Shown: positions 6,292 to 60,689 of the stretch, one piece after another
Layout: each line of letters opens with the position of its first letter
Numbering within the stretch: position 1 is the first letter of the stretch
NCBI GenBank assembly: GCA_937868095.1
Contig: CALMLO010000006.1
Span: forward strand, 1,791-65,790
From: an uncultured Phycisphaerales bacterium
GTDB taxonomy: Bacteria > Planctomycetota > Phycisphaerae > Sedimentisphaerales > Anaerohalosphaeraceae
DNA: 64,000 nucleotides
Direction of reading: 5' to 3'
The notes under the pieces: generated by a model
The model's database searches: none
What the model saw: only the letters and a program-made list of their open reading frames with translations
What the model was told of the DNA's origin: nothing
Program-made: the position numbers and the translations under genes

Positions 6292-6337
6292 GATTAGAGA
6301 ACAAACAGAGGAACTCTTCTTGGCACGGGGGACTGTT

Positions 6338-20254: not shown

Positions 20255-20788
20255 GTGTCCGGAAACGACGACAGAGTGGAAATTTTTTTGAATTTGTATT
20301 CGTCTTACCAGCCGCGGATATATGGATATATTATGTCCGCTATCGGGGATTGGAACCAAGCGGATGATATTCTTCAGGAAACCATGAGTGTTTTGTGGAA
20401 CAAATTTGATCAGTATGTCATCGGTACTGACTTTCTCTCTTGGGCGTTAAAGGTTGCCCATTTTCAGATTTTATGCCATATCAAAAAACAGAAAATTCAG
20501 AATAAATATTTCAGCCGGCAAACGATAGAAAACATCAGCGAGATAGCGGTTTCCTTGTCAACAGATACAGAAGAACCCCTCAAGGCCCTTCGCAAGTGCG
20601 TCAAAAATCTGCCTGAACGAAGTCAGCACCTGCTTGCCCTGCGTTATGAAGATAACACCACCATTCAGAAGATAGCCCGTCGGCTCCAGCAAAGTGTTCA
20701 TACCCTTTATAAAGAATACCAGAAAATCCATTATCAGCTTTTTCAGTGCATCCGCAGGCAGTTGGAGTGGAACCGAGCTGAACGATGA
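20255..20788 (+). CDS. ECF-type RNA polymerase sigma factor (sigma A of this window)
   Basis: GTG start. Region 2 is ADDILQETMSVLWNKFDQY and region 4 is LPERSQHLLALRYEDNTTIQKIARRL. The stop overlaps the anti-sigma start (ATGA at 20785-20788). From memory it resembles the Rhodopirellula/Verrucomicrobium ECF family; this needs an HMM check. Confidence 0.85.
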   Translation: MSGNDDRVEIFLNLYSSYQPRIYGYIMSAIGDWNQADDILQETMSVLWNKFDQYVIGTDFLSWALKVAHFQILCHIKKQKIQNKYFSRQTIENISEIAVSLSTDTEEPLKALRKCVKNLPERSQHLLALRYEDNTTIQKIARRLQQSVHTLYKEYQKIHYQLFQCIRRQLEWNRAER

Positions 20789-22602
20789 ATGCTGACCAGA
20801 TAAACAGAATGTTTCAGTTATTTGAGGCCGTTCGAGAGGGAATCGTCTCAGAAGAGCAGCTGGCCGAACTGGATCAAATCCTTGCCGAAAACAAAGAGGC
20901 CTGCCATTATTATCTTGAATACTTCAATATGTGTGTTCTTCTCAAAAGCGGCAAAGCTTTCGACCAGACCTTTTCCGCTATACCGGAGATGAATGATTCT
21001 CTTCGTGACATGGGTTTTTGGCAGGCGATGGCCAGAGAAGAGCAGACGGCCCCCGGAATGGAGATTCCCGCTGTCCCCGAAGAGGTTTCCCAAGAGAAGA
21101 TCCTGACGGCAATCAGAACCCCTCAGCCCAAAGTCAGCAAACTCTCTCTTTTTTCCCTGTTTCTGTCCTCTGCTGTCCTGATTTTCATGATTGTATATGC
21201 TCATCTTGTTTCTCTGAAACGGGGGATTGAGGTAGCCACGCTGGCCGACAGTATCGATGCCGTCTGGGATAGGCCGGCCTCGTCTATGCAGGCGGGAAGC
21301 AGACTAACGACAGATCACACTCGTTATCTCCTCCGGGCCGGCCTGGCGAAGTTGTTGTTTGATAACAGTGTGGAGGTATTGATTGAGGCGCCGTCTCAAT
21401 TCAGATTGTTGTCGCAGGACAAGGTTGAATTAGTCTATGGACGAATTTACGCCAAAGTCCCGCCCCAGGCCGTTGGATTTACGATAGATACCTTATCCGC
21501 TCAGATTGTGGATTGGGGCACGGAGTTCGGTGTGGAAGTAGATTACAAAGGAGACACATCCCTTCATGTAATGAAAGGCAAAACTTTGCTGGTTGTGGGG
21601 AATCAATCGAAACAGTCCGCTCTCCCAATCGAAGCCGGCACTGCCAAAAAAGTCTCCGCAACCACCAACACCGTATCCGATGTGCCCTGCGATCATGATC
21701 GGTTCATTCGGGATCTCGATTCCTCAAACAACTTTGTTTGGCGCGGCGAAGTAAAGCGTTGGGATGGTTATGTCAACTGGACCGCGGAGTCCGGGAATTG
21801 GGCCGATGGAGCCAATTGGGATACGGGAATCAAACCGGACGGCTCACGGTGTGTGCGGCTTCGAAAAGGGCCGACCTCTGTTTGTACGTTGAATACAGTC
21901 GAAAAGCCGATTAGTTCCGTCCTGATTGTTTCAAACGGCCAGACGCTTACTATCGAAGAAGGGGGCTATATGGGCTGCGGCTGGTCTCGTTTTGGAGGGT
22001 CCACTGTTTATATGCGCGGCAATGGAACCTGGCTGCTCAATAATGACGATTTATACATTGGGTACCCCGAAAAGGGGGCCGGTGAGTGCGTCTGGACAAT
22101 GTATGATCACAGCAAGATTGAAATTAACGATGACCAGGATGACGGCGAGGTTTTGTACATTTCTCAGGACAATGCAAAAGGAACCCTGAGACTGGTTGGT
22201 TCGAATGTGAGCATCCGCTGCGATCAGCTGTACGTGGGATACCCAAGAAATCCGGGATTTTCACCCGTTGCAGTGCTTGAATATGTGATGGACGCCAACG
22301 GCGCCGGCATCATTCGGGTTGGATATCGAGTCTATCTGGCCGAAGAAACTGCATCATCTTATCTTCTGCTTCGTGCCCCGGAACCTCTTCCTAAAAAAGA
22401 TATTGTCCTGATCGAGATTCTCGGGAATGAAAAAAAGATTCGAGGAAAAGGAGCGTTCACCGCAATGAACGGAGGACCTGCTGCCGAAGGGACTCCTGTT
22501 CAGTTAGGCGGCAACTTGTACACCCTTACCTACCGATATGAAGCCAATGGAGATGGATATCTGAATGATATTGCTTTGGTCTTTCAAACGGATTCGCCTT
22601 AG
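20785..22602 (+). CDS. FecR-like transmembrane anti-sigma factor with an unassigned ~287-aa C-terminal module
   Basis: Translationally coupled to the sigma gene. It has an N-terminal helical anti-sigma segment, one TM helix (LSLFSLFLSSAVLIFMIVYAHLV) and a FecR core (GFTIDTLSAQIVDWGTEFGVEVDYKGDTSLHVMKGKTLL). The C-terminal extension is homologous to the next two proteins. Confidence 0.85.
   Translation: MNADQINRMFQLFEAVREGIVSEEQLAELDQILAENKEACHYYLEYFNMCVLLKSGKAFDQTFSAIPEMNDSLRDMGFWQAMAREEQTAPGMEIPAVPEEVSQEKILTAIRTPQPKVSKLSLFSLFLSSAVLIFMIVYAHLVSLKRGIEVATLADSIDAVWDRPASSMQAGSRLTTDHTRYLLRAGLAKLLFDNSVEVLIEAPSQFRLLSQDKVELVYGRIYAKVPPQAVGFTIDTLSAQIVDWGTEFGVEVDYKGDTSLHVMKGKTLLVVGNQSKQSALPIEAGTAKKVSATTNTVSDVPCDHDRFIRDLDSSNNFVWRGEVKRWDGYVNWTAESGNWADGANWDTGIKPDGSRCVRLRKGPTSVCTLNTVEKPISSVLIVSNGQTLTIEEGGYMGCGWSRFGGSTVYMRGNGTWLLNNDDLYIGYPEKGAGECVWTMYDHSKIEINDDQDDGEVLYISQDNAKGTLRLVGSNVSIRCDQLYVGYPRNPGFSPVAVLEYVMDANGAGIIRVGYRVYLAEETASSYLLLRAPEPLPKKDIVLIEILGNEKKIRGKGAFTAMNGGPAAEGTPVQLGGNLYTLTYRYEANGDGYLNDIALVFQTDSP
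21739..22599 (+). other. shared unassigned module, copy 1 (C-terminus of the anti-sigma)
   Basis: Aligns colinearly with 22887-23699 and 24749-25561. Shared strings include NGQT.xIExGG, LNNDDLYxG, GTLRxVGS, STLEY, LPxKDIVLI, GKGxFxxMNGGPAxEG, LGGNLYxLxY and NDIAxV. Confidence 0.75.
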
Positions 22603-22826
22603 GACCGAAGGTATCTCTTTAGGGGTCGGTCTGAAGAGCGGATGAAATAAAAATGGTGTTTTTGGGAGGATGAGCGGGATGAGAAGAACTTTTTAAGGAG
22701 AGGGTTTTGCTTTCTGTTCACAGGGCGGACAACGCCGACTTGGCTTGAAATGGCCGATTGATTCCCCTCTATTGCAGGAGTCATCAAAGTAAATTCTAAT
22801 CAACTTAATCGGAAAGGGCGTAATTT

Positions 22827-24500
22827 ATGAAAAAGACAAGTCTCATTTTATTGTTCTTCCTTCTTTTAGCCGGTGTGCTGATTGCAGATTTTGAATGGAA
22901 TGTCGAATCCGGTACTTGGAATGAACCATCCAACTGGAAGGGCGGCGTGAAACCCAACGGTACCGCCAATATCAATCTCCGATACAGTCCCGCCTCTGTG
23001 TGCATTCTGAATACAGATGAAGGATTGTTTCCAAACCGCCTGATGATTCAGAACGGTCAGACCTGGAATATTGAAAACGGAGGTCGTGCCGGTTTTACCT
23101 GGGCCAGAATTGGTTATGGCGCCAACGCAGCTGTTAATATGACAGGGAATGCTGTCTATGTACTGAACAATGATGATTTGTATATCGGCGAACTGAACGG
23201 CAATGCCGTCTGGACAATGTATGATACCAGTTCAATTGTCTTGGCGGATCCTTCACGAAATGATGACAACGTGTATGTCGGCAAGGACGGCATGGGAACC
23301 TTGCGGATTGTCGGCTCTAAGGTGACAATCGCTCCCGCTCGAATTGACTTCGGGTGGATTCGAACCACCGATGCCAAACCCGTAAGCACGCTGGAGTATA
23401 TTATGGATGCGGATGGCGCCAGCACGATTGTGACGCAGCGCATCAACAGACTTGGAGATCCAGGGAGCACCAATCATCTGGTACTCAGTACTACAGCACC
23501 TCTTCCGGAAAAGGATATTGTGCTCATCATGGCAACCGGTGGATACAGCACCGGCGGCAAAGGCGTGTTTGATACGATGAACGGCGGACCAGCCGGGGAG
23601 GGTGCTCAAATTGTACTTGGCGGAAACCTATATGCTCTGAGTTATAAATATGATGCCAATCATGACAGCCAAAATAATGATATTGCTCTGGTTTTCATCC
23701 GCTCTGCGAAACACATGGCCTCCAGCCCCATCCCGCCCCATGGAGCAGTACTGACCTCAAGTCCTGTGGAGCTGAGCTGGACGCTTCCTGATCCCAACGA
23801 CGGTGTCAGCAGCATTACCTGTTATGTCTGTTTGGGTATGGAACTGCCGGATCCGAATAGGACGAACATGGACTGTGTGATGCTGCCGCCCAATGTATCA
23901 ACTGTGGCCGTTGATTCGGCCAATTTCCACCGATACGGTATCCAGCCCCTGCCGGATTCCAACGATTTTTACTGGATTGTTGATTGCTTCGATTCCAGCC
24001 CGGCAGTCAGCCCTGAGGAGGGGAAAGGCATAGTGTGGAAATTTACGACGGATTACAATAATGCTCCGTCTGTCGATGCCGGTCCTGACCAGGTGGCTTG
24101 GCTGGGCAAAAGCGGCACCTCCGGCCAGGAAGTGATTACATTAGCGGGCACCTATTCGGATGACGAAAAACCAAATCCTCCAGGCACGTGCACGCTCCAG
24201 TGGACGCAGGTGAGCGGCCCGGCCGACGCAGCAATTGTACCGGATAATGACAAAACGGCCGCAGTGACTATTACCACCGCCGGCGTATATCAGTTTATGC
24301 TTACTGCCGACGACGGCGAAAAACAAGGCAGCGATACGGTTCAGGTAATTGTGGGCTCTGACTCCTGCCACGCTTCGTATCTGAATGGGACAAACTATAA
24401 CTCGAAGGATTTCAATCTTGATTGTACTGTCGATCTGATAGACTTCGCTGATTTTGCGGCAGACTGGCTCGCCTGCACAAACACCTTCGAAGGATGTTAG
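22827..24500 (+). CDS. secreted non-catalytic protein: shared module + FN3-like + PKD/Ig-like + dockerin-like tail
   Basis: Signal peptide MKKTSLILLFFLLLAGVLIA, then the N-terminal module homologous to the anti-sigma C-terminus. It continues with an FN3-like segment (VELSWTLP..FYWIVDC..VWKFTT), a PKD-like segment (PSVDAGPDQVAW..QWTQVSGP) and the tail DFNLDCTVDLIDFADFAADWL. Confidence 0.85.
   Translation: MKKTSLILLFFLLLAGVLIADFEWNVESGTWNEPSNWKGGVKPNGTANINLRYSPASVCILNTDEGLFPNRLMIQNGQTWNIENGGRAGFTWARIGYGANAAVNMTGNAVYVLNNDDLYIGELNGNAVWTMYDTSSIVLADPSRNDDNVYVGKDGMGTLRIVGSKVTIAPARIDFGWIRTTDAKPVSTLEYIMDADGASTIVTQRINRLGDPGSTNHLVLSTTAPLPEKDIVLIMATGGYSTGGKGVFDTMNGGPAGEGAQIVLGGNLYALSYKYDANHDSQNNDIALVFIRSAKHMASSPIPPHGAVLTSSPVELSWTLPDPNDGVSSITCYVCLGMELPDPNRTNMDCVMLPPNVSTVAVDSANFHRYGIQPLPDSNDFYWIVDCFDSSPAVSPEEGKGIVWKFTTDYNNAPSVDAGPDQVAWLGKSGTSGQEVITLAGTYSDDEKPNPPGTCTLQWTQVSGPADAAIVPDNDKTAAVTITTAGVYQFMLTADDGEKQGSDTVQVIVGSDSCHASYLNGTNYNSKDFNLDCTVDLIDFADFAADWLACTNTFEGC
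22887..23699 (+). other. shared unassigned module, copy 2 (N-terminus of a secreted protein)
   Basis: See 21739-22599. Confidence 0.75.
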
Positions 24501-24539
24501 GAAATGAAGTCCAAAGAAGGGGACAAAGGATTGGCGTAT

Positions 24540-24578
24540 AATTCGGGTCTGCCTCTTGTTCTGAGGCAGACCCGAATT
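24540..24578 (+). terminator. strong stem-loop between the two paralogues (terminator or processing/attenuation site)
   Basis: Perfect 16-bp stem AATTCGGGTCTGCCTC (24540-24555) / GAGGCAGACCCGAATT (24563-24578) with a 7-nt loop. Only a weak U-tract (GCTTTC) follows. Confidence 0.5.
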
Positions 24579-24664
24579 GCTTTCATCCTCGAAAAGAACA
24601 TTACTTTTGTTTCACTATTCAACTCCCGAAAAACTGATAAAGCGAGATTGCAGAGGAAAAGAGA

Positions 24665-26977
24665 ATGAAATGGAACAGGCGGCAAATCACGTTTTTTCTG
24701 ACGGCAATACCGGCATGGTTTTCTTTTTTTATCTGCCCTGCCAGCGCAGATACCAGCTGGAATGCAGAAGCCGGCTATTGGGCAGACGACGCAAACTGGA
24801 CAGACCTCAAGCCGGATGGCGAGGATGCCTATATCTATCTCCGCTTCAGCAGTACGTCTGTATGCACCCTGGATACCTTTGAAGGGTTGTTTTCATCTCG
24901 CCTGATTATGCAGAACGGCCAGACGCTGCGCATTGAAGAAGGCGGATACGTCGGTGCAAAGTGGGCACGCCTTGGACGAGGAAGTTCCTCCTATGTCATT
25001 CTCAGCGGCAGCGGCACCTATGTGCTCAATGATGATGATTTGTATTGCGGTCTGGAGGGTGGGCATTGCGAATGGAGAATGTTTGGCACCGCCGCCCTGC
25101 TCCTCAGCGAAGAGGACGGAGACGATGGGGAAGAAGTGTATTTTGGATATAATGGCGGAAGCGCATTGCTTCAGCTGAACGGCTCTGAAGTTACGGTGCA
25201 AGTCGATCAGATTCATTTCAGCAGCAGGGCGGATATGGGGACTCCCTCTTCGACGCTTGAGTTCGTTTTAGATGAAGGGGGAGCGGCACGGATTGTGAGC
25301 AAACGGATTTATCTTGGCGAGAACGGCACATCGCATCTTGTAATTACCGACCCAGGGGTGACCCTCGGGGCAGGAGATATTGTCCTGCTGGAAGCGGCCG
25401 GAAGTGCCGGAATCGGCGGCAAAGGGGTGTTCGATACCCTTAACGGCGGGCCGGCCGACGAGGGCACATATATCACGCTGGGCGGCAATCTTTATGTGCT
25501 CACCTATGCCTATGCGGCCTCCGGAGATTCAATTCAAAATGATATAGCCATGGTTTACCAGGCGGCCCCCTATGCTTTGTATAAAGCCCATTCGCCGATG
25601 CCGGAAGACGGCAGCTGCGTGATTGACAGTCCGACCGTCCTGAAATGGACCAATCCGAAACCGGCAGGGGGAGTGCCGACCTGTACGGTGTATTTGGGGA
25701 CAGTTTCCGACCGGGCGGCTATGGCTCGGGTGACCCTTGAGCCGGCGGCCTCGTCGGTTCAGCTCAACGCAGCCAACTTCCCGACCTATGGCGCCCAGCC
25801 CCTGGCCGATGGGACTACCTATTATTGGATTGTGGATTGTGCCTATGCCGATCCCGCTTTGCCGCCTGAGGCCGGACAAGGCGATGTATGGACATTTCAA
25901 ACATTGCTGTCGCTGCCCAAACAGGATGGATTTGGCGGTCAAGCCGTCGGCGGGGCAGGCGGAGCAGTGGTGACAGTCAGCGATTTCAACACTTTCAAGT
26001 ATTTCGCCACGTCCGAAAACCCCTATATCATTCGCGTTTCAGGTACGATTGATTTCGGATACGGCGTCAAAGTCCAGCCCAAATCCAATAAGACAATCGA
26101 GGGCGCAGACCCCCGCGCCGTGATTATAGGCAATATCGACTTAAGCGGAAGTCAAAACTGCAATAATGTCATCATTCGGAACTTGAACATTACCAATCCC
26201 TATCGGGATCCTGTTACAGATGACGGCTCCGATGGGATTACCGTCTGGGGCGCAACCAATGTGCTTATCACACACTGTACCATCTATGACTGCGGCGATG
26301 GACTCTGCGATATCACGCGGTCCTCAGACAATGTCACGGTGTCGTGGTGTAAATTTTACTACACCGACCCGTCGGATTCCCACCGATTCACCATGATATC
26401 CGGCAACGACCCCTCTTGCCGTCCCCACATCACATTGCATCACAACTGGTGGGCTCAGAACTGCGACCAGCGCATGCCGTCGGGAAGCTGGAGCACCGTC
26501 CACATGTATAACAACTACTTTACCTGCACTGGTAACTACTATTGCTCCAATGTTCGTGACGGCGGTGAGATGTTGAGTGAAAGCAATTATTACCTCAACG
26601 TCAGCAATCCCGTTACCGTGAGCTTGCCTCCCGCATCAGGACAACCCGCCGGCCGTATCAAGACAAGGGACAATGCCTATGTTTCCTGTACCGGGACCAT
26701 TTACCCCGGCCGAGACACGGTATTTACGCCAAGTTACGCCTATACCATCGATGCAGTGGCTGATGTGCCTGCGATTGTTTCCGCCGGCGCCGGCAACCGG
26801 CTTTATGGCGATTTCAATGGGGATGGGAGGGTGGATGCAGAGGATTTGTATTTGTTTTCAGAGTTCTGGCTGGATGACAGCAATCGGGCCGCATTTTATC
26901 AGGATCTCAATGGGGACGGCCGGGTTAACTTCTATGAGTTTGTTTCCTTTGCCGGACATTGGCTTCAGACCTATTGA
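24665..26977 (+). CDS. secreted PL1-family pectate lyase with N-terminal shared module, FN3-like module and double dockerin-like tail
   Basis: Signal peptide, then the shared module and an FN3-like segment (VLKWTNP..TYYWIVDC..VWTFQT). PL1 motifs: KSNKTIEG..VIIRNLNI..DGITVWGATNVLITHCTIYDCGDGLCDIT..VTVSWCKF..ITLHHNWW..DQRMPS..VHMYNNYF. Tail: GDFNGDGRVDAEDL..DLNGDGRVNFYEFVSFAGHWL. Confidence 0.85.
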   Translation: MKWNRRQITFFLTAIPAWFSFFICPASADTSWNAEAGYWADDANWTDLKPDGEDAYIYLRFSSTSVCTLDTFEGLFSSRLIMQNGQTLRIEEGGYVGAKWARLGRGSSSYVILSGSGTYVLNDDDLYCGLEGGHCEWRMFGTAALLLSEEDGDDGEEVYFGYNGGSALLQLNGSEVTVQVDQIHFSSRADMGTPSSTLEFVLDEGGAARIVSKRIYLGENGTSHLVITDPGVTLGAGDIVLLEAAGSAGIGGKGVFDTLNGGPADEGTYITLGGNLYVLTYAYAASGDSIQNDIAMVYQAAPYALYKAHSPMPEDGSCVIDSPTVLKWTNPKPAGGVPTCTVYLGTVSDRAAMARVTLEPAASSVQLNAANFPTYGAQPLADGTTYYWIVDCAYADPALPPEAGQGDVWTFQTLLSLPKQDGFGGQAVGGAGGAVVTVSDFNTFKYFATSENPYIIRVSGTIDFGYGVKVQPKSNKTIEGADPRAVIIGNIDLSGSQNCNNVIIRNLNITNPYRDPVTDDGSDGITVWGATNVLITHCTIYDCGDGLCDITRSSDNVTVSWCKFYYTDPSDSHRFTMISGNDPSCRPHITLHHNWWAQNCDQRMPSGSWSTVHMYNNYFTCTGNYYCSNVRDGGEMLSESNYYLNVSNPVTVSLPPASGQPAGRIKTRDNAYVSCTGTIYPGRDTVFTPSYAYTIDAVADVPAIVSAGAGNRLYGDFNGDGRVDAEDLYLFSEFWLDDSNRAAFYQDLNGDGRVNFYEFVSFAGHWLQTY
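24749..25561 (+). other. shared unassigned module, copy 3 (N-terminus of the pectate lyase)
   Basis: See 21739-22599. Confidence 0.75.
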
Positions 26978-27838: not shown

Positions 27839-28381
27839 ATGTGGGCGAATTCAGATAAAAATCAGCTCGATAGAACCAAATCCTTCATGCGGCTGGTATT
27901 TGCAAACGAAAGGCGAATTTATGCCTATATATATCTTTTAATCCCCATTCAATCAGAAGCAGAAGACATTTTCCAGGACACATTGTCTGTAATGTGGAGC
28001 AAGTATGACCAGTTCGAGCGGGAACGGGATTTTGGAGCGTGGGGAATCGGAATTGCTTCCAATCTGATAAAAAATTACCGAAGGAAAAGGAAAAACCAAT
28101 CTTTTTTTCTTGAAGAGGACCTTGAGAACCTTTTGGAAAAAGAGGCCCGGCAATCCATAAAATCTCTGGATGCCCGTATCGAGGCCTTACGTCAGTGTCT
28201 TTCTCATCTCGATCCGCTTGACCGGAAAATCATCCATATGAGGTATGAAGAGGATATTGCGGTAAAAGCAATTGCTGAAAAGATTCGCACCACAATCAAG
28301 GCAATTTATGTGAAATTGGCCCGTTCCCACGACCAGCTGCTTCGCTGCATTCGAAGAACGTTAGCCGAACAAGGAAACTGA
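27839..28381 (+). CDS. ECF-type RNA polymerase sigma factor (sigma B of this window)
   Basis: Aligns along its whole length with 20255-20788 (RIYAYIY..AEDIFQDTLSVMWSKYDQF..LDPLDRKIIHMRYEEDIAVKAIAEKI). Confidence 0.85.
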   Translation: MWANSDKNQLDRTKSFMRLVFANERRIYAYIYLLIPIQSEAEDIFQDTLSVMWSKYDQFERERDFGAWGIGIASNLIKNYRRKRKNQSFFLEEDLENLLEKEARQSIKSLDARIEALRQCLSHLDPLDRKIIHMRYEEDIAVKAIAEKIRTTIKAIYVKLARSHDQLLRCIRRTLAEQGN

Positions 28382-28383
28382 GC

Positions 28384-30069
28384 ATGGACGACCGGAAGAA
28401 ATCTCAATGGTTATGTGAGCGAATCCTTCAATTTCGGGACGGCCAACTTCCCGAGGACGAGTCCGCCGACCTGAAAGCCGTATTGCGCAATGATCCCCAG
28501 GCAAGGCGGTATTACATTGAAATTGTTGTTATGCATGCGATTTTCCAGGGTCGTAAATCCCCTCTTGTGAAGACGAATGTTTATCTGCCTTCAGAAGAAG
28601 TGATGGATAATGAATTGTGGGAAGCATTGGCGAAGGAAGAGAATTCAGCAGAGCCGATAGAAGTGATCAGACAGCAATCGGAATCGGAAAAAGCCGCATC
28701 TGCCGTTGTCACCGTTCGGGAAACCCGCGTAAAAAATACGCCGAGCAAAACACCGCTTTATGTTCTTTTGGCCTCTGCTGCGGCCATCTTTTTTGTCATA
28801 CTTTCCATCCGTTATTCTCCCTTTAAATCCGGCACGGCAGTGGCTGTTTTATCAGACAGTTTAGAGGCTGTCTGGAGTGATTCCGTCCTCCGAGAGAAAG
28901 GGGCTCCTCTTTTAACAGGGTCCAAACCCTATATCCTTCAGCAGGGATATGCTCAGCTTGTGTTTAACAATCATGCCCAGGTGACCATTCAGGCGCCGGC
29001 ATCGTTTCGCCTGCTTGATGAGGACGTGCTCAAACTGAATTTCGGACAGGTTTACGCCATCGTTCCGCCTTCTGCCTATGGATTTCAGATTTGCACCAAA
29101 GAATCAAAAATTATTGATTTAGGCACAGAATTTGGGATTGAACAGACTCTCAGCGGCGATACGGAAATTCATGTCCTCCGAGGAAAAGTGGTCCTGGTTT
29201 CAAAAGCAAAAGAACGCAAGATCAATTTGAATCTTTCGGCAGGGAACGCCTGCAAACTGATTGCCGCCACTGGACAAACACAGCAGATTGAGTGCCGCGA
29301 AGGCAGATTTGTAAGACATATCAATTCAGATTTTCGATGGGCCTGGAAGGGACAGCCGCTTGACTTAGCGGATTTGGCGGGCGGCGGCAGCGGCTTCGGA
29401 GGCGGAGACAGCCGGAAAGGCATCGATTTGTCAACCGGCAGAATGCAGCCCCGCGCAAACCAGGGATATGATAAGCCGGCGGCGGCTGGATTTCGACCGG
29501 TTCAGGATTTGCCCTTCATAGACGGAGTTTTTGTCCCGAACGGCGAGTTCGGCCCCGCAATAGTCAGCTCACAGGGGCATCAGTTTGACTTTCCCAAAAC
29601 CAGTGGGGCCTATTGGTCTGATATTACCCCCAATCCGTACATCGCCAAAAAGAATCCCCAGACAAATGAAATCGAGTATGTCTCCACGCTGCTGGAAGTG
29701 GAGGGCAAGCCGGACGAACCCATTCCGCCTCGGCTTCTGGTGCATCCGAATGCCGGCATTACATTTGATCTGGACAAAATCCGGCAGGCATACCCATTCT
29801 TTGAACTGAAATCTTTCCGGGCTGTTTGCGGCCTGCCGCAGATCTTGGATTTTCGAAAACGGTCGGAATTCTGGGTGCTGCTGGATGGACAATGTGTTTT
29901 CCACTGCCAGTCCGATTATCAAAATCTCAGCAGCAGAAAAGTCGAAATTCCAATCGAGCCGCATGCTCGATTCTTGACCTTAGCCGCCACCGACGGCGGA
30001 GATGGAACACATTACGACTGGTGCGTGTTTGCCCAGCCGGTTTTATTGCTTGAAAGAAGTTCCTTGTAA
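28384..30069 (+). CDS. FecR-like transmembrane anti-sigma factor with a C-terminal NPCBM-like module
   Basis: There is a 2-nt gap after the sigma gene. It has one TM helix (LYVLLASAAAIFFVILSI) and a FecR core (GFQICTKESKIIDLGTEFGIEQTLSGDTEIHVLRGKVVLV). The C-terminus HPNAGITFDLDKI..FWVLLDGQCVF..RFLTLAATDGGDGTHYDWCVFAQPVLL follows the NPCBM-type pattern; this is by eye and not verified. Confidence 0.8.
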   Translation: MDDRKKSQWLCERILQFRDGQLPEDESADLKAVLRNDPQARRYYIEIVVMHAIFQGRKSPLVKTNVYLPSEEVMDNELWEALAKEENSAEPIEVIRQQSESEKAASAVVTVRETRVKNTPSKTPLYVLLASAAAIFFVILSIRYSPFKSGTAVAVLSDSLEAVWSDSVLREKGAPLLTGSKPYILQQGYAQLVFNNHAQVTIQAPASFRLLDEDVLKLNFGQVYAIVPPSAYGFQICTKESKIIDLGTEFGIEQTLSGDTEIHVLRGKVVLVSKAKERKINLNLSAGNACKLIAATGQTQQIECREGRFVRHINSDFRWAWKGQPLDLADLAGGGSGFGGGDSRKGIDLSTGRMQPRANQGYDKPAAAGFRPVQDLPFIDGVFVPNGEFGPAIVSSQGHQFDFPKTSGAYWSDITPNPYIAKKNPQTNEIEYVSTLLEVEGKPDEPIPPRLLVHPNAGITFDLDKIRQAYPFFELKSFRAVCGLPQILDFRKRSEFWVLLDGQCVFHCQSDYQNLSSRKVEIPIEPHARFLTLAATDGGDGTHYDWCVFAQPVLLLERSSL

Positions 30070-30098: not shown

Positions 30099-32111
30099 AT
30101 GAAAAGAATAGTTCTGTTTTTAATGGGAAGTGCTGTTTTGGCCTCATGTGCCTATGCGGCCTTGTTTGAAGATTTTGAGAACTACAAATTGGGCCTTGTG
30201 GGAGATGTGACAAAGGGCAAGTGGGTAGGGACTGACGCAGTAATTGTAATGAACAATCTCAATAAAGCGTTAGATGCCTCCGACGCGGTGCCTGTCTATG
30301 CTTCATTGGGGAGTTTTTCTATTCCGGATTCAGATACGCAGACAACGGTCTTCTTCCGCTTTTATGTGGCCACCGGCAGTGAAAACTCTCCAATCGGAGT
30401 TGCCGATGAGGGAGATACAAGTCCGGACAGCTATGGGGATATGGACGCTTATGTCCAATGCATCAGCGGCAATCTGACCGCTCGAAATGGTTCAAGCAGT
30501 CCAACCATCATTTCGAAAATCAGCCCCGGCTGGTACAATGTTTGGCTGGTGATTAACAACAATGCCAACATTTATGATGTTTATGTGAATCAGGGCACCG
30601 CTGATGCAGCGGAAGCAGACAAGAAGGCGACGAACTTTGCCTTCCGCACGCCTTCGACAACCTCCATCGTATCATTTGCGAATGTATATGGCTCCGGTCA
30701 TTTATTTGACGACATCTATATTACACCCGGCCTGAGTCTGGTCAATCCGCCAAGACAGGTACCTCCGACCCCCGCTGCCATTGAAGGATTTTTTATGACA
30801 AATGGGTCTGGTCTGGAGTATTCAACAGTGATCAATGGCCATTTTACTCTTCCGGGTTCTTCCAGCACGGGCACGATAGGCGTTCCGGGTTGGTACAGCA
30901 ATCAGACGGTTTGGAGCTCAGACAGCGGTACACGCAGCGGCGACAGCTCGGATGGTGATGGTTGGCATTTCAGCGAAAAAGTCACGGATGGGCCGATTTG
31001 GAATGTGACCCAGACCAAAATGGTGCCGGGACAAAGTTATACCTTTTTTGCCGATGCGCACGGACGATGGGATTGCAACAGGGCCTATCTGTCTGTAGTT
31101 ATTGGCGAAGATCCCAACACTGGCTTAGGGGATCCGAATCTCTCCTTGGCCACCGCAGAACATGTGATTGGCGGCAATGGGATTTGGTATCACGATCTTT
31201 TTGTAAGTTATACCGCAACGCAGGCAGATGCCGGCAAGTGCATCGGCCTCAAACTGGAAGGAGGCAGTACTACCAAGATCGACAACAGCTGGATTCGGTA
31301 TGACAATATTCGATTGTATGATGGATTGGCTGTAGTGAAACATGGCCCTCTCAATCCAGTACCGGCAGACAGCAGTTGGGATCTCGCTCCAGGGGCGTTT
31401 GTCCTGTCGTGGACGCCAAGCAATGATCCGAACTGTACCGGTCAGCGGCTGTATTATTACATCGGGACCGGAGGAATGTTTAATCTTTCTGCTTATAATG
31501 CCGTCAGTCCTGTTTCTTTATCTCCATCAGCGGATTTCTACAACATCGGCACACTCGCTTTTGATCAATATGTCCTCTGGCGCGTGGATACAGTAATCGA
31601 TGGAGCCGCATATACGGGCCCGACGTGGTTTTTCGTAACGCAGACGGCGGACTTCCCTCCTATTGTCGATGCGGGCTACAGCTGCATTACTTGGCTGGCC
31701 AATCTTCCGCAAACTCTCGCCGGCACCGTCGATGACCTCGGCGAGGGAGATGTCGCTGATGCCGATGTGGTTTGGTCGATTGCCTCCGCTCCATCAGGAG
31801 CAAATGCCAGTGTTGTCAAAACATCGACCAATCCGTTCCAGCCGACTGCGGTTTTTACAACGGATACAGCGGGAACCTATACAATTCAGCTGACTGCCTC
31901 CGATACAGGAGGTTCCCAGGGCTCCCAGACTTCGTTTGACACTTTGACAGTCCGCGTAGCCGCAGATGCCTGTGCCGCTCAGCAGATGGTTCAGGCGGGC
32001 TACAAGGCGGCTGATTATGATCGGAATTGTGTGGTGGACCTGGCGGATCTGTCTGCCTTTGCCGGCCAGTGGCTGGATGATATCCGCTTGACGGAAGCCG
32101 TTCCGTATTAA
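30099..32111 (+). CDS. secreted non-catalytic multimodular protein (jelly-roll modules, FN3-like, PKD/Ig-like, dockerin-like tail), paralogue 1
   Basis: GGGAGG RBS and a signal peptide. From about nt 30785 it is colinear with the next gene ([56 protein letters not shown]..). Tail: [21 protein letters not shown]. Confidence 0.85.
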   Translation: MKRIVLFLMGSAVLASCAYAALFEDFENYKLGLVGDVTKGKWVGTDAVIVMNNLNKALDASDAVPVYASLGSFSIPDSDTQTTVFFRFYVATGSENSPIGVADEGDTSPDSYGDMDAYVQCISGNLTARNGSSSPTIISKISPGWYNVWLVINNNANIYDVYVNQGTADAAEADKKATNFAFRTPSTTSIVSFANVYGSGHLFDDIYITPGLSLVNPPRQVPPTPAAIEGFFMTNGSGLEYSTVINGHFTLPGSSSTGTIGVPGWYSNQTVWSSDSGTRSGDSSDGDGWHFSEKVTDGPIWNVTQTKMVPGQSYTFFADAHGRWDCNRAYLSVVIGEDPNTGLGDPNLSLATAEHVIGGNGIWYHDLFVSYTATQADAGKCIGLKLEGGSTTKIDNSWIRYDNIRLYDGLAVVKHGPLNPVPADSSWDLAPGAFVLSWTPSNDPNCTGQRLYYYIGTGGMFNLSAYNAVSPVSLSPSADFYNIGTLAFDQYVLWRVDTVIDGAAYTGPTWFFVTQTADFPPIVDAGYSCITWLANLPQTLAGTVDDLGEGDVADADVVWSIASAPSGANASVVKTSTNPFQPTAVFTTDTAGTYTIQLTASDTGGSQGSQTSFDTLTVRVAADACAAQQMVQAGYKAADYDRNCVVDLADLSAFAGQWLDDIRLTEAVPY

Positions 32112-32259: not shown

Positions 32260-34371
32260 ATGAAAAGGGTTTTGCTGGTTCTTGCGCTTATGTTTAGTAC
32301 GGGGGCGGCGGTTGCCGACTTTACCGCAAATGACAATCCGCTGCACTTGTGGAATCTGAACGGCAGCGGTACGGACAATGGTTCGGGCCTGATTGATATC
32401 GTTACCCTGGCCAATGGAGCACGATATGACCGCTGGATGAATGGGATAGATTTCTCGGCGGATGTCACGGCCTATGCGGCCCCTGAACCGGCCAACCTCC
32501 CGATGTCTGTCCTTCTCGGAGGGGGGGCTTTTACGATTGAGGCGATTGTTTGCCCGGCCTTGACACCGGGAGCTGAGTCAAGCCACATGGAAATTGTCTC
32601 CGCAGAAGATGGTTCTACCCGCGCTTTTCAGTTTCGAATTAATGACGGCGGAACAACTCTTCGTTTTCAAACGCTTACCAGCGGCTTCACGACAACCGTT
32701 GCTTATGATGTTCCTATCACCTATGAAGCGGGAAAATGGTACCACGCGGCTGTAACGTACAGCGGGGTACCGAATGTGGCTGGCAATCTGAAAATATACT
32801 GGACGCCGCTGGGAGAAGCATCTCTGATTGAAGTAACGGCGGCCTCTCCCCAAACCATGACCGGAACAATTAACCCCGACCGTTATGCCGAATTTTGTAT
32901 TGGGAACGAACTGCGGGCCAGCCCCGGCGAAAACTGGGAAGGCGTAATCGATGCCGTGCGCATCACCGAAGCCGAACGCTCTCCGGCGGCCATGCTCGCA
33001 TCGATTGTTCCCCCGCTGACACCTCCGGCGGAAACCCCCATTACCGGCATGTTCTTCGAAAACGGCACCGGGGAAGAATATACAACAGTGATCAACGGCA
33101 ACTTTACCCTCCCGGGCACCGCCAGCAAAGGCACGACAGGTGTGCCGGGTTGGTACGGCAGCCAGACGGCTTGGAGTTCAGACACCGGTACGCGCAGCGG
33201 TGACAGCTCGGATGGCGATAATTGGAACTTCAGCGAAAAAATTGCCGATGGGCCGATTTGGAATGTTACACAAACTCGAATGGTGGAAGGCCGCAGTTAT
33301 ACCTTCCTGGCCGACGTGCAGGGACGCTGGGACTGCAACAGGGTCACAATGTCGGTCATTGCAGGGGAAGATCCGAACACCGGTCTGGGGGACCCCAATA
33401 TTCCTCTTGCAAGTGTTACCCATGTGATCGGCGGCAACGGAGTTTGGTATCACGATCTCTTTGTGAGTTATACAGCAACAGAAGCGGATGCCGGCAAATT
33501 CATTGGGGTCAAGTTTGAAGGAGGCAGTACCACCAATGTGAATAACAGCTGGATTCGGTATGACAATGTCCGAATGGTGGATGGTTCTATTACTATCAAG
33601 CATGGACCGCTCGATCCGATTCCGGCGGATGAAGCAGTCGAGGTGGCTCCTGGCTCTTTTTCGCTCCATTGGACACCGAGCAATGACCCGAATAAGGTCG
33701 CTCAGAATTTGTATTATTATATTGGAACGGGCAAATCGTTCGACATTGCTGCCTATAGGGCGGTTAGTCCGGTTCCCCTCTCTGCCTCGGCGAATTCCTG
33801 CAGCATTGGCACTGTCGGTTACGATCAATATGTCCTCTGGCGTGTGGATACGGTAATTGATGGGGCCGCTTATACCGGTCCGACGTGGTATTTTATGATG
33901 CAGACAACGGACTTTCCGCCGACGGTGGATGCGGGCTACAGCTACATTACATGGCTGGGCAATCTGCCGCAGCTGCTGGCCGGAACGGTGGACGATGGCG
34001 GTGAAGGCGATGTAGCCGATGCCGATGTCGTTTGGTCGATTATCTCCGGCCCTTCGGGAGCAGCCGCCACTGTTGTCAAAACCTCGACCGATCCGCTCCA
34101 GCCGACCGCGATGTTTACAACGGACAAAGCCGGCGACTATGTGATTGAGCTGACAGCCGCCGATACCAACGGTTCACAGGGCGTCCAGTCGGCTTCGGAC
34201 AGATTGACGGTCCGCGTAGCCGCCGACGCCTGTGCTGCCCAGCAGATGGTTCAGGCGGGCTACAATGCGGCTGATTATGATCGGAATTGTGTGGTGGATC
34301 TGGCGGATTTGTCCGCCTTTGCCCGCCAGTGGCTGGACGATATCCGATTAAGTTCCTCGGTTCCTTATTAA
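32260..34371 (+). CDS. secreted non-catalytic multimodular protein with LamG-like N-terminus, paralogue 2
   Basis: Signal peptide [19 protein letters not shown]. The N-terminal LamG-like module (..[26 protein letters not shown]) is unrelated to the N-terminus of paralogue 1. The remainder is homologous to 30099-32111 and has the same dockerin-like tail. Confidence 0.85.
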
Positions 34372-34415
34372 AAGACATGGCAAGCCGGAAAAAAGACAAA
34401 TGTCAATATCCTATA

Positions 34416-34455
34416 GACAGGGCAGGACTTCTGCAGGAAGAACTCCTGTCCTGTC
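34416..34455 (+). other. extended imperfect stem-loop between paralogue 2 and the prepilin-like gene
   Basis: GACAGGGCAGGA..CTTC-TGCAG-GAAG..TCCTGTCCTGTC forms about 16 bp with one 3-nt bulge and one G-U pair. No U-tract follows. Confidence 0.3.
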
Positions 34456-34481
34456 CCGATGTGTTTCGAAAAGGAGAAACC

Positions 34482-35297
34482 ATGACTCGGAAATGTCTAT
34501 TGCGGTCGAAAGGATTCACATTAATTGAGCTTCTGGTTGTGATTGCAATTATCGCCTTGCTTTTGGCGGTACTTATTCCCTCGTTGCGAAAAGCCAGAGA
34601 AAGCGCCAAGTCCTTGACCTGTCGGAGCAATCTGAAGCAAATGACGTTGGCCTTCAGCGTTTACAGCCAGGAAAATGACGGCCGGATGTTTTCTTTGGCT
34701 TATGGAGCCGATTACTGGTTCCGGAAGATTGCACCTTTTCTGGGGGACGCCTATTTTCAGCAGAACCCCACCGTGGACTATACAGGAGTCATGCAGGTGA
34801 GCATTTGTCCTTCTACGAAGATTCAGACCTCCAGAGAAAATGGAACCTACAATACCACCTGGCATTATCAGGACGGCATTGGTAGCTACGGCATCAACTG
34901 CTGGCTTCTCTCGGACGTCCCGGATTCAAGCGGAAAAACCTGGTATGAAAAGTGGGGCGGGGGCATCGGCCAGACAACCGGCCGTTATTTCGAACGCTAT
35001 TCGATTGCCCGTTCTGATGCCGGCCTGCTGGCAGACGCCTTTCGCATGGATGTCTGGCCGATGCCGGATCAGGAAATCCAGCTTCGCTTATCTACCAGCA
35101 AAAGCGAATTAAAGGAGCCAGGTGGATTGCCTCACAACCCCAACTATTTCATGAGACGCTATATGGCGGACCGCCATGGCATGGCCGTCAATGTCGGCTT
35201 TGTAGGGGGTTATGTGGAAAAAGTTAATTTGGTGGATCTCGGCTTGATTAGTTGGAGCAAACGCTCTTTTCCCCGCCCGGATTTAATTATTCCGTAA
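34482..35297 (+). CDS. prepilin-type N-terminal cleavage/methylation protein with a DUF1559-like C-terminus
   Basis: AAGGAG RBS at 34471-34476. The N-terminus is [26 protein letters not shown] and the C-terminal motif is [20 protein letters not shown]. The start was chosen inside ORF 34287-35297. Confidence 0.85.
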
Positions 35298-41008: not shown

Positions 41009-41482
41009 CTAAAGAGCGAGAATATAGTAAAAGGCATTTCCATTCTGGCGAAAAATGCCTGTGGATAAATTGCCGTCATCAATTTTGGCGTCAATCTCTT
41101 CCATAAAGCCGGCATCTCGCGTCATATCCGAACCATCGAAACTGACACCGATGCAGGAGGTAAATCCGCTGGCGGTTTGGTCGGCTGTCTGCCAATAGCC
41201 GCCGATAGGGGTTTTTTTAATCCATTTCTTGGCTTCAATATATTCATCCCAGCCGGCGGGAATCTGGCCGGGGTCGGCACTTTCCAGGTATTCTCCTGTC
41301 TTAAACCGGTAATACTCTGCTGCCGACACAAATGTTCTCAAGCACGACACAAACGAGTTCTGCCGGGCCTCTGTGCTGGCGTTGTTGACGGAAATAATCA
41401 CCACCGCTGCCAGCAGCCCCAGAATCAAAACCACAATCAGAACTTCGACCAGGGTAAAACCGTCTCTGAATCGGGAGTTCAT
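41009..41482 (-). CDS. type II secretion/type IV pilin-like pseudopilin
   Basis: N-terminus RDGFTLVEVLIVVLILGLLAAVVI (prepilin cleavage/methylation motif). GGAGAG RBS, with the start at 41482 inside ORF 41009-41524. Confidence 0.8.
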   Translation of the reverse strand: MNSRFRDGFTLVEVLIVVLILGLLAAVVIISVNNASTEARQNSFVSCLRTFVSAAEYYRFKTGEYLESADPGQIPAGWDEYIEAKKWIKKTPIGGYWQTADQTASGFTSCIGVSFDGSDMTRDAGFMEEIDAKIDDGNLSTGIFRQNGNAFYYILAL

Positions 41483-41592
41483 AGGCGTCTCTCCAAATTC
41501 AAATTTTTCCGTTTTGGGACACAATCCTGTTTAAATAATAAAAAAAGATAGGCCGCTTTCCAAATCGGGCAGGTTTTAATATCGCTTCTGTC

Positions 41593-57684: not shown

Positions 57685-57686
57685 CA

Positions 57687-60687: not shown

Positions 60688-60689
60688 CA

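Follow-up and report, generated by a model that had tools for sequence, protein, structure and literature searches.

A FecR-type anti-sigma factor from a pectin-degrading Phycisphaerae bacterium carries the same predicted beta-solenoid module as the secreted proteins encoded beside it

Pairs of ECF sigma factors and FecR-type anti-sigma factors are among the commonest transmembrane signalling devices of bacteria. The stretch of DNA analysed here (the window, 64 kb) comes from a pectin-degrading, Anaerohalosphaeraceae-like member of the Phycisphaerae, and carries such a pair directly upstream of genes for two exoproteins, A and B; the four open reading frames, all on the forward strand, are present as described in an earlier sequence-only reading of the window. 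The surrounding genes are those of pectin and hemicellulose breakdown, encoding PL1, GH43 (four), GH95, GH78 and GH31 enzymes and esterases. The ECF sigma factor (20255..20788) has 177 residues if read from the GTG at 20255, or 151 from the ATG at 20333 at which public assemblies start it. It contains Sigma70_r2 and r4_2 domains and belongs by TIGR02989 (129.5 bits, cut-off 124.55) to the Rhodopirellula/Verrucomicrobium ECF family. The adjacent, co-oriented anti-sigma gene overlaps the sigma stop codon in the tetranucleotide ATGA (20785-20788). A Pfam scan of all open reading frames of at least 150 aa in the window revealed no TonB-dependent receptor, as had been noted earlier.

The anti-sigma factor (605 aa, 20785..22602) is made up of a cytoplasmic N-terminus, a single predicted transmembrane helix (aa ~120-142, 21142..21210; LSLFSLFLSSAVLIFMIVYAHLV, a hydrophobic stretch read from the translation), a periplasmic FecR (CJM-type) domain (aa 188-266, 21346..21582; PF04773, 28.1 bits against a cut-off of 24) and, in the position of the sensor, a C-terminal module predicted to be a beta-solenoid (aa ~330-601, 21772..22587). 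FecR is its only Pfam domain: there is no match to RsgI_N, and neither Pfam nor NCBIfam detects an STN/FecR_C subdomain at the C-terminus, where residues 330-601 are occupied by the module. The dipeptide Gly245-Thr246 (21517-21522) stands where FecR and FoxR cleave themselves, and the motif is conserved in paralogues and orthologues, DWGTEFGV here corresponding to DLGTEFG both in a second anti-sigma factor of the window and in the orthologue from the related locus L001. FecR cleaves itself at Gly-Thr (PMC8144685), and the window's anti-sigma factor may do likewise. A further orthologue, from locus L005, is 47% identical to it; identities among the three range from 47 to 58%.

Exoprotein A (557 aa, 22827..24500) consists of a signal peptide (aa 1-20), the module (aa 21-292, 22887-23702), a domain of ~110 aa, a K319L-like PKD domain (aa 434-509) and a dockerin-like tail, with no recognised catalytic domain; it has orthologues in loci L001, L002 and L004, as well as P0003. 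Exoprotein B (770 aa, 24665..26977) likewise begins with a signal peptide (aa 1-28), the module (aa 29-300, 24749-25564) and a domain of ~110 aa, followed by a PL1 pectate lyase (aa 473-643; PF00544, 67.7 bits against 24) and a type I dockerin (aa 714-756; PF00404, Dockerin_1, 33.4 bits against 22.9). The lyase and dockerin of B had been correctly recognised from the letters alone, but the dockerin-like character then ascribed to both tails is less clear for A, whose tail gives no Dockerin_1 match (Pfam, E≤0.1) and shows one Cys-flanked EF-hand-like repeat and weak similarity to the tail of B (E=0.025). A and B are 45% identical over 404 aa, the alignment extending so far because the ~110-aa domain after the module is common to both. 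Between their genes lies a perfect 17-bp hairpin (24539..24579), identified by RNA folding as a candidate terminator or attenuator (−31.5 kcal/mol, z=−9.5, a stability reached by none of 200 shuffles); a simple terminator scan missed it because it has no clean T-run. A search for an ECF-type promoter motif common to the genes scored no better than shuffles.

The sensor of the anti-sigma factor and the N-terminal modules of A and B are paralogues. In BLASTP comparisons with composition-adjusted statistics, residues 332-600 of the anti-sigma factor align with residues 24-290 of A at 46% identity and with eight gapped positions (E=1e-70), and residues 330-601 align with residues 30-299 of B, also at 46% identity (E=2e-64). 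The colinear similarity reported by the sequence-only reading is therefore real: its blocks (21739-22599, 22887-23699 and 24749-25561) agree with these alignments to within a few codons, and the motif strings that it listed are visible in the alignment, although its estimate that two residues in five are conserved was slightly low. A hidden Markov model of the module covers residues 330-603 of the anti-sigma factor (E=5e-125) and finds only three copies in the 64 kb, those of the anti-sigma factor, A and B. With 70% amino-acid identity as against 49% identity at third codon positions, the similarity between modules is kept at the level of the protein, and the modules are under purifying selection.

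A second ECF sigma factor (27839-28381) and FecR anti-sigma factor (28384-30069) lie further along the same strand (27839..30069) and provide a comparator, since this second anti-sigma factor ends in an NPCBM/NEW2 domain that has no paralogue among the downstream proteins. The two anti-sigma factors are 34% identical over aa 17-322 and unrelated beyond, which sets the boundary of a clean domain swap at aa ~322-330. FecR+NPCBM proteins of ~550 aa make up nearly all the closest relatives of the N-terminal half; one is FecR+LamG. Judged by sequence, the window's anti-sigma factor belongs to a FecR family of the Phycisphaerae that usually ends in NPCBM/NEW2, and has had this domain swapped. That its sisters bear a carbohydrate-binding-type domain at the sensor position makes direct sensing of a glycan, as in RsgI, plausible.

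The module itself has no Pfam or NCBIfam model, in keeping with the earlier failure to assign it to a named family, and matches no CBM family. Its beta-helix-like appearance is supported by a confident AF2 model of the anti-sigma copy (pLDDT 83, pTM 0.85), which is all-beta and solenoid-like; the best Foldseek matches, to the autotransporter beta-helices IcsA, Hap and Ag43, are non-significant (E 0.03-0.08, TM ~0.3). Against the TIGR04393 repeat model (cut-off 23 bits) the anti-sigma module scores 12.6 (E=0.11), protein A 13.4, and the distant P0134, a divergent anti-sigma factor named 'T5SS/PEP-CTERM-associated repeat protein' by JGI, 22.7. An exhaustive profile search returned 672 representative proteins, which sets a lower limit to the size of the family. 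Most consist of a signal peptide, the module and a PEP-CTERM anchor; in some the module is N-terminal to an enzyme, and very few are anti-sigma fusions. A PEP-CTERM end is present in ~110 of 152 members inspected, and was confirmed in sampled members by PF07589/TIGR02595; the three copies in the window lack this tag. The module does head A and B as had been proposed, but it is a feature mostly of PEP-CTERM surface proteins and is not specific to exoenzymes. Related loci add to the pectin and hemicellulose context, with PL1, GH43 and giant proteins of pectate-lyase type that the module heads. At L001, another PEP-CTERM protein duplicates one accessory domain of a neighbouring enzyme, so that the same module is found on surface anchor, enzyme and sensor, like CBM3 in Clostridium thermocellum.

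In nearly all members the module follows the signal peptide directly, and this, together with the prevalence of PEP-CTERM anchors, could mean that an export or anchoring machine (an exosortase, or one of T2SS type) recognises the module, with the anti-sigma copy as a decoy from which the cell reads how loaded or available that machine is. Module loci are repeatedly accompanied by DUF1559/N-methyl pseudopilin-like genes, which would fit such a role. However, the PEP-CTERM sorting signal is a C-terminal tag and not the passenger, the window contains no exosortase or secretin gene, and the module shows no likeness to TPS or other known secretion domains; we regard this explanation as very improbable.

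The pairing of sensor and neighbour recurs. Five loci with a module-bearing anti-sigma factor, drawn from two deep lineages, are readable (the window, L001, L005, L028 and L029), and in all five the module also occurs in the first or second gene downstream, whereas among 17 control FecR-type anti-sigma factors no C-terminal region has a counterpart in a neighbour. No TonB-dependent transducer was found in the other four loci either. The anti-sigma gene is followed by A and then B in the window, by a PEP-CTERM protein and then A in L001, and directly by a PL1 lyase in L005. The anti-sigma factors of L028 and L029 belong to a divergent lineage, 25% identical to that of the window; they are paired with a module-only PEP-CTERM protein, and these short contigs show no CAZyme. 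The association is one-way, from anti-sigma factor to neighbour: most module-bearing proteins are unpaired, and the module-bearing exoproteins of L002-L004 and L031 adjoin AraC/LacI-type regulators, with no ECF pair. In this respect the earlier reading needs correction, since most exoproteins with the module lie away from ECF/FecR pairs. The anti-sigma modules are polyphyletic and cluster with the subfamilies of their own neighbours, not with each other. Bootstrap values of 100% unite the L005 anti-sigma module with its PL1 neighbour and with A of the window, and support a clade holding the L028 anti-sigma factor and its PEP-CTERM neighbour; the module of B groups with the PEP-CTERM protein P0002 (88-91%). 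At L005 the anti-sigma module is 70% identical to that of its neighbour as against 52% to that of the orthologous anti-sigma factor in the window. Many non-cognate modules are at least as close to the window's own anti-sigma module as those of A and B are (46-47%).

Duplications of domains tend to be local, that being mechanistically the easiest route, and the sensor might have been copied from the gene next door only to sense something unrelated, or to serve as a bulky, protease-resistant cap, with A and B under other regulators. The null result of the promoter search, the hairpin that parts A from B, the homologous enzymes in L002-L004 beside regulators of other types and the many unpaired module proteins would all be in line with such a by-product. 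On the other hand, the adjacency has survived deep divergence and gene rearrangement among the window, L001 and L005, the second lineage shows the pairing with another subfamily of the module, purifying selection acts on the modules, and such sharing is absent from the 17 controls. An accident of duplication therefore seems to us unlikely.

The most likely reading, which we put forward tentatively, is that the protein is a TonB-independent FecR-type switch in which a copy of the module has replaced NPCBM/NEW2 and senses the glycan bound by the exoproteins, in the manner of RsgI. The module would be a glycan-binding, adhesin-type domain which, on A, B and the PEP-CTERM surface proteins, targets a pectic or matrix glycan, and the anti-sigma copy in the periplasm may bind that same glycan or imported fragments of it. 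Binding would then set off the FecR-type cascade of Gly-Thr self-cleavage, site-1 cleavage and RseP-type cleavage, and so free the ECF sigma factor to transcribe the adjoining exoprotein genes, A and B being its putative regulon. Such a scheme would place an RsgI-like sensor, that is, an accessory module of the enzymes, on a FecR chassis, and for sensors of this kind RsgI offers the precedent (PMC10328401, PMC6056542, PMC6852018). The genes of pectin and hemicellulose breakdown around the pair, here and in related loci, also favour this reading. The way in which anti-sigma modules track their neighbours' subfamilies is as expected if a sensor must match the specificity of its effector. Several observations count against glycan sensing: the lack of a CBM match, the non-significance of the adhesin fold matches, the CAZyme-free neighbours at L028 and L029, the null promoter search and the hairpin between A and B. 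In a diderm, moreover, the sensor is periplasmic, so that a polymeric ligand would need prior import or fragmentation. To our knowledge, what every characterised FecR-family regulator senses is a partner protein and not a small ligand, which also speaks against it.

A close rival is that the anti-sigma module binds the homologous N-terminal module of its neighbour, in the periplasm or anchored in the inner membrane, as PupR binds PupB. In the bound state the anti-sigma factor would be stabilised or shielded and the sigma factor off, while depletion of the partner, its export or its engagement with substrate would lead to proteolysis and turn the sigma factor on, the outcome being feedback control over the supply or display of the cell's own products. 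In the canonical FecR systems the regulator indeed pairs through its C-terminal domain with a homologous partner N-terminus and gains stability or protection from the partner (PMC7186176, PMC11637429); PupR has a C-terminal STN subdomain that is structurally homologous to the signalling domain at the N-terminus of PupB and binds it (PMC7186176). The module is, besides, the only feature common to all the paired neighbours (PL1 lyase, A and module-only PEP-CTERM proteins), and the clustering of anti-sigma modules by neighbour subfamily, above all at L005, is in keeping with partnership. Some of the best fold matches, such as Ag43, are autotransporter beta-helices that self-associate, and a duplicated self-associating domain would be an instant binding pair, which would explain its repeated recruitment; self-association of the present module is, however, supposed by analogy. 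The N- and C-terminal geometry is uninformative, given that almost every member has the module at its N-terminus and that an anti-sigma sensor always stands at the C-terminus. Against partner sensing, the sister NPCBM-type anti-sigma factors work without a paralogous partner, a polysaccharide locus needs a substrate-responsive regulator, which pure product feedback does not supply, and the window's anti-sigma module shows no special closeness to those of A and B. We consider partner sensing possible but somewhat doubtful. The same reserve applies to its broader form, in which the FecR anti-sigma factors of Planctomycetota might have re-invented cell-surface signalling without TonB, a homotypic beta-solenoid handshake replacing the ancestral STN-STN contact and monitoring periplasmic flux or surface display of products, and the partner's module having been copied onto the regulator on at least two or three occasions to create the pairing.

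The sequence-only reading had considered a circuit of this kind to be undescribed for ECF/FecR pairs. The STN homology of PupR and PupB is a partial precedent (PMC7186176), and the interpretation given in that reading is, as a whole, partly supported.

We know of no characterised ECF/FecR pair that does not depend on a TonB-dependent transducer. In the lineage described here the transducer-binding domain has been swapped, mostly for CBM-like domains and in this variant for the neighbour's module, and the pairing points to a TonB-independent coupling of gene control to secreted or surface proteins. If, as we prefer, the sensor binds the enzymes' glycan, the clostridial RsgI principle would extend to diderm PVC bacteria, and the family, with at least 672 representative proteins, would become a candidate for a novel type of carbohydrate-binding module. 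Binding to the module of the partner would instead amount to a novel form of feedback coupled to secretion or display, and would illustrate how sensor-ligand pairs can arise by domain duplication. Either way, a testable rule follows for the orphan anti-sigma signals of CAZyme-rich Phycisphaerae, namely to look for an adjoining paralogue.

Among known systems, the closest in sequence are the FecR+NPCBM/NEW2 or FecR+LamG anti-sigma factors of Anaerohalosphaeraceae and other Planctomycetota, known only at the level of annotation in the literature searched. Their N-terminal halves are 30-44% identical to the present one, and they likewise have a partner sigma factor of the TIGR02989 family and lie in CAZyme-rich loci, one example being 5 kb downstream in the window; they differ in ending in a CBM-like NPCBM fold for which the adjoining genes hold no paralogue (0 of 17 loci). 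FecI/FecR/FecA, PupI/PupR/PupB and FoxI/FoxR/FoxA resemble the present system in the overlap of the ECF sigma gene with the gene of a single-pass anti-sigma factor, in a periplasmic FecR (CJM) domain with Gly-Thr at the self-cleavage position, and in the homology between the anti-sigma C-terminal domain and the N-terminal domain of a Sec-exported partner (PMC7186176). Unlike them, the window has no STN/FecR_C domain, no TonB transducer within its 64 kb and no iron context, and what it pairs is a predicted beta-solenoid of ~275 aa, the candidate partners being soluble or anchored (a PL1 lyase, a non-catalytic protein and PEP-CTERM proteins). TIGR04393 repeat proteins and autotransporter passengers (IcsA, Ag43, pertactin) share the predicted all-beta solenoid, the weak repeat-model matches and the frequent fusion to PEP-CTERM anchors, but the module falls below the TIGR04393 cut-off, reaches a TM of only ~0.3 and is not attached to an autotransporter barrel. 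Dma proteins are likewise ECF anti-sigma factors that have an unusual C-terminal domain in place of a separate TonB-dependent transducer; theirs, however, is an outer-membrane beta-barrel of eight strands that follows a disordered linker, and they have neither a FecR domain nor paralogy to neighbouring secreted proteins. SigI/RsgI of Clostridium (Acetivibrio) thermocellum offers an analogy of design only: there too the sensor is homologous to accessory modules of secreted dockerin-bearing enzymes, and multiple paralogous pairs with different sensor modules coexist in one cell. The window's sigma factor, in contrast, is an ECF of the TIGR02989 family and not sigma-I, its chassis is FecR and not RsgI_N/SEAL, its envelope is diderm and its sensor hence periplasmic, its module is not a recognised CBM, and the sensor gene directly adjoins its paralogues.

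The gene set analysed here comprises four co-oriented genes on the forward strand. An ECF sigma factor (20255-20788), which passes the TIGR02989 model for the Rhodopirellula/Verrucomicrobium ECF family, is followed by a FecR anti-sigma of 605 aa (20785-22602; Pfam FecR at aa 188-266) whose start overlaps the sigma stop; then come exoprotein A (22827-24500, 557 aa), in which Pfam recognises only a K319L-type PKD domain, and exoprotein B (24665-26977, 770 aa), in which it recognises a PL1 domain at aa 473-643 and a type I dockerin at aa 714-756. The sigma start is ambiguous (20255-20335): the longest reading frame opens with GTG at 20255 and encodes 177 aa, and public assemblies use ATG at 20333, giving 151 aa; TIGR02989 matches the 177-aa protein from residue 11 onwards, which favours the upstream start. 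The coordinates, motifs and signal-peptide boundaries (D21 in A, D29 in B) of the sequence-only reading proved right, as did its assignment of B as a PL1 pectate lyase; it had also given both exoproteins dockerin-like tails, which holds for B, the tail of A going unrecognised by Pfam.

The C-terminal part of the anti-sigma is paralogous to the mature N-termini of A and B. In BLASTP with composition-adjusted statistics, anti-sigma residues 332-600 are 46% identical to residues 24-290 of A (E=1e-70), and residues 330-601 are 46% identical to residues 30-299 of B (E=2e-64). These significant scores, together with collinear conserved motifs in at least eight sequences, rule out a compositional artefact, and the paralogy first noticed by eye is thereby confirmed, and strengthened further by the recurrent pairing described below. 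In the 64-kb window a module HMM detects these three copies and no others. A and B are 45% identical to each other over 404 aa, the alignment extending so far because a domain of ~110 aa after the module is also common to both. This domain lies directly after the module (23703-24050 in A, 25565-25903 in B), bears the motifs LSWT.P.P and YYW.VDC and has no Pfam match; it also follows the module in proteins of the related loci L001, L002, L003 and L004 and in the homologous protein P0003.

The module itself has no model in Pfam or NCBIfam and no match there above threshold. At family level there is a single signal, below threshold, from TIGR04393, the T5SS/PEP-CTERM-associated repeat (12.6 bits for the window module and 22.7 bits for the distant member P0134, against a cut-off of 23), and the JGI name for P0134 is likewise T5SS/PEP-CTERM-associated repeat. 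AlphaFold2 gave a confident, all-beta model of anti-sigma aa 320-605 (pLDDT 83, pTM 0.85), with short strands at solenoid-like spacing. Foldseek with this model found no significant match in the PDB, nothing scoring below E=0.027; the top matches were the autotransporter passenger beta-helices of IcsA, Hap, Ag43 and pertactin (E 0.03-0.1, TM ~0.3), followed by further beta-helix proteins, pectate lyases among them. A profile search of PDB sequences returned nothing below E=0.1. These searches assign the module to no known family, and the earlier description of the module as beta-helix-like and unassigned stands, if weakly.

Five relatives of the module were recovered by word-indexed search among 5.8 billion proteins; when 1.84 billion cluster representatives were searched exhaustively with a profile, the yield was 672 at E<=1e-3, 174 at E<=1e-10 and 73 at E<=1e-30. 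Among 152 members whose architecture was inspected, ~110 consist of a signal peptide, the module and a PEP-CTERM anchor (300-360 aa), and ~25 are longer secreted proteins, with LamG, CBM9, or PKD and a dockerin-like tail, in which the module forms the mature N-terminus. The predominance of PEP-CTERM proteins indicates a fairly large uncharacterised surface-protein domain family, and the module is not a head particular to exoenzymes. That the module serves on the anti-sigma as a secretion or sorting decoy would be very improbable. Only three of the 152 (P0007, P0008 and P0134) have it C-terminal on an anti-sigma of ~600 aa, and a later large protein search added a single divergent fusion, P0183. 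Two giant module-headed proteins of 1325 and 1442 aa are encoded at L002:6060-10037(-) and L003:7935-12263; after the module they have dockerin-like repeats, a pectate-lyase-like region, PA14-like and Fn3-like parts and a CBM-like C-terminus.

The anti-sigma is a domain-swapped member of its own family. A second ECF sigma and FecR anti-sigma pair lies at 27839-30069, and its anti-sigma ends in a Pfam NPCBM/NEW2 domain; the two window anti-sigmas are 34% identical over residues 17-322 and unrelated beyond. Residues 1-319 of the first, used as query, retrieved 27 proteins, nearly all of ~550 aa, with precomputed matches to NPCBM (PF08305) in nine and to LamG in one. Where the usual members of the family carry a carbohydrate-binding-type domain, the first anti-sigma thus has the beta-solenoid module. 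Downstream of the second pair, 30099-32111 and 32260-34371 encode, in tandem, two secreted proteins that are paralogues of each other (73% identity over 459 aa), with PKD-like regions, dockerin-like tails and differing N-termini, the second having LamG; neither contains a paralogue of the NPCBM sensor.

Pairing of anti-sigma and neighbour was judged on the five loci with readable context, namely the window, L001, L005, L028 and L029, the context of the P0134-type fusion being read from its cluster member P0182. In the window, the module-bearing anti-sigma is followed by A and then B. At L001, from an Anaerohalosphaeraceae MAG, the order is sigma, anti-sigma (module 58% identical to that of the window anti-sigma), a small unrelated PEP-CTERM protein and an A-type exoprotein whose module matches that of the anti-sigma at 46% (E=9e-67). 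At L005, where the anti-sigma is P0007, with 47% identity to the window's, the sigma and anti-sigma genes precede one for a PL1-dockerin lyase; the lyase module and the L005 anti-sigma module share 70% identity. The anti-sigmas of L028 and L029 are only ~25% identical to the window's, and no enzyme genes are present at these two loci; the next gene encodes a 332-335-aa protein made of signal peptide, module and PEP-CTERM anchor, and the modules of this protein and of the anti-sigma before it share 32% identity (E=5e-31 and 4e-35). A module-bearing gene thus lies one or two positions downstream in all five module-bearing anti-sigma loci. The controls were 17 other FecR-type anti-sigmas whose C-terminal region could be evaluated, 16 of them found by scanning metagenomes and one belonging to the second pair in the window; another two loci were too truncated to be used. 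In none of the 17 is the C-terminal region common to any ORF on the same contig. A general rule for FecR-type anti-sigmas that the sensor matches the neighbour is therefore ruled out, and the rule is specific to the beta-solenoid fusions. No ECF pair lies beside the module-headed exoproteins of L002-L004 or the module PEP-CTERM protein of L031, which adjoin AraC/LacI-type regulators instead, so the association is one-way, from anti-sigma to module neighbour. The original interpretation is partly supported: a TonB transducer is indeed missing and the pairing recurs, but the module is no exoenzyme-specific head and most module-bearing exoproteins lie away from ECF/FecR pairs.

Neighbour-joining trees of the module (200 bootstraps) show the anti-sigma copies to be non-monophyletic. 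The window anti-sigma module pairs with that of L001 (bootstrap 94-98%); the L005 anti-sigma module clusters with its PL1 neighbour and the module of A (100%); and that of L028 falls in a separate clade with its PEP-CTERM neighbour, P0142, P0151, P0083 and P0135 (100%), its best BLAST partners across the whole family being that neighbour and the neighbour's orthologues. This grouping with neighbours implies that a neighbour's module was recruited onto anti-sigmas independently at least two to three times, or else long-term co-evolution. Recent gene conversion at L005 is ruled out by a third-position identity of 49% and a longest identical run of 17 nt; set against 70% identity in amino acids, these values mark the similarity as old and kept by protein-level selection. 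It is improbable that the arrangement is a by-product of local duplication devoid of functional coupling.

Established directly are that the modules are paralogous, that the domain was swapped, that the pairing recurs and that a TonB transducer is missing; what can be said of mechanism is inferred. It is tempting to suggest, though at somewhat less than even odds, that the anti-sigma module senses glycan in the manner of RsgI. The module would be a glycan-binding, adhesin-type domain, used alike on enzymes, PEP-CTERM surface proteins and sensor, so that the anti-sigma might detect the same glycan, or imported fragments of it, in the periplasm, and detection would release the sigma factor through the FecR proteolytic relay. 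The NPCBM and LamG domains at the module position of sister anti-sigmas point this way, as do the CAZyme-rich context and the general requirement of polysaccharide-type loci for a substrate-responsive regulator. L001 offers a parallel with another module: the intervening 224-aa PEP-CTERM protein (L001:8985-9659) matches, over its whole ectodomain, two internal domains of a downstream 940-aa dockerin-tailed protein (L001:12766-15588) at 59% and 44% identity (E=3e-64 and 1e-39), and so gives a second example of an exoenzyme's accessory module being duplicated on a small PEP-CTERM protein encoded nearby. Alternatively, and rather unlikely, the anti-sigma module might bind the module of its neighbour. 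In the PupR-PupB structure, the extreme C-terminal STN subdomain of the regulator is a structural homologue of the N-terminal signalling domain of the transducer, and it binds and is stabilised by that domain (PMC7186176); in the FoxR system the anti-sigma is shielded from proteolysis by the transducer (PMC11637429). Partner sensing would repeat the PupR-PupB logic with another domain, and the module is the sole feature common to all paired neighbours. Geometry fits glycan and partner sensing equally, because across nearly the whole family the module sits at the N-terminus, and an anti-sigma always has its sensor at the C-terminus.

A search for bipartite motifs (6-mer, N14-19, 5-mer; one mismatch allowed in each half) in eight upstream regions from the window, L001 and L005 gave no ECF-type promoter common to the sigma, A, B, PEP-CTERM and PL1 genes, the best motif occurring in six of eight regions and those of shuffled sets in five to seven. 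A sigma-70 and terminator scan added nothing useful. The A-B intergenic region contains a perfect 17-bp stem with a 7-nt loop (24539-24579; dG -31.5 kcal/mol, z=-9.5), missed by the consensus terminator scan because the U-tract after the stem is weak; it may serve in termination, in attenuation or in RNA stability.

Enzymes for plant polysaccharides are abundant in the window (four GH43 proteins, GH95, GH78, GH31, esterases and PL1), and neither a TonB-dependent receptor, as the sequence-only reading had stated, nor an exosortase was found among the scanned ORFs of at least 150 aa. Among genomes, the module loci have their closest relatives in MAGs of Anaerohalosphaeraceae, the source of the named anti-sigma homologues, of Sedimentisphaerales and of other Phycisphaerae; many ENA metagenome contigs carry the anti-sigma with an identical sequence and in identical gene order. 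At 766-11170 are encoded two very large secreted proteins (1841 and 1642 aa) that combine GH43 with GH5 or GH30-like domains, CBM6/35, ricin-B, LamG, Fn3 and a C-terminal MAM, an adhesion domain typical of eukaryotes and unusual in bacteria. DUF1559/N-terminal-methylation (pseudopilin-like) genes recur beside module-bearing genes and these sigma/anti-sigma loci, at 34287-35297 and 41009-41524(-) in the window and at L001:11820-12701, L004:5102-6091, L028:4067-5011, L029:3232-4218 and L031:8836-9579; at L028 and L029 they directly follow the paired PEP-CTERM gene and precede a conserved ORF of ~140 aa. A small iron and oxidative-stress cluster at the window end (57196-62809), unrelated to the present finding, encodes a Fur-family regulator, a peroxiredoxin, an ODP/metallo-beta-lactamase-fold protein, a ferritin-like protein and a ferredoxin-NAD(P) reductase-type protein.

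In the ECF reclassification papers, FecR-like anti-sigmas are described solely in company with TonB-dependent receptors or else as exceptions. Full-text searches of the literature yielded no description of a FecR-type anti-sigma sharing its sensor with adjacent exoproteins, as had been supposed for ECF/FecR pairs, nor of FecR+NPCBM anti-sigmas or of the module family. We regard the locus as a variant FecR-type switch whose novel sensor domain derives from the partner and was recruited repeatedly, and an uncharacterised PEP-CTERM-associated family of predicted beta-solenoids is also revealed. The evolutionary pattern is clear and, for a phylum that has received little study, yields a hypothesis on signalling that can be tested directly. 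Of the canonical FecR/PupR features, the window anti-sigma keeps sigma coupling, a single TM helix and the FecR/CJM domain, whose self-cleavage position as described in PMC8144685 corresponds to the Gly245-Thr246 motif, where cleavage is predicted. The STN/FecR_C subdomain and the TonB-dependent transducer were sought and are absent, so the system is not a full member of FecR cell-surface signalling; nor, with another sigma and another anti-sigma chassis, does it belong to RsgI/SigI, whose SigI factors have been reconstituted with promoter-reporter fusions in a heterologous host (PMC4711584). The Bacteroides Dma anti-sigmas are likewise transducer-free but structurally unrelated. In function the window system nevertheless appears to work like the FecR or the RsgI/SigI scheme.
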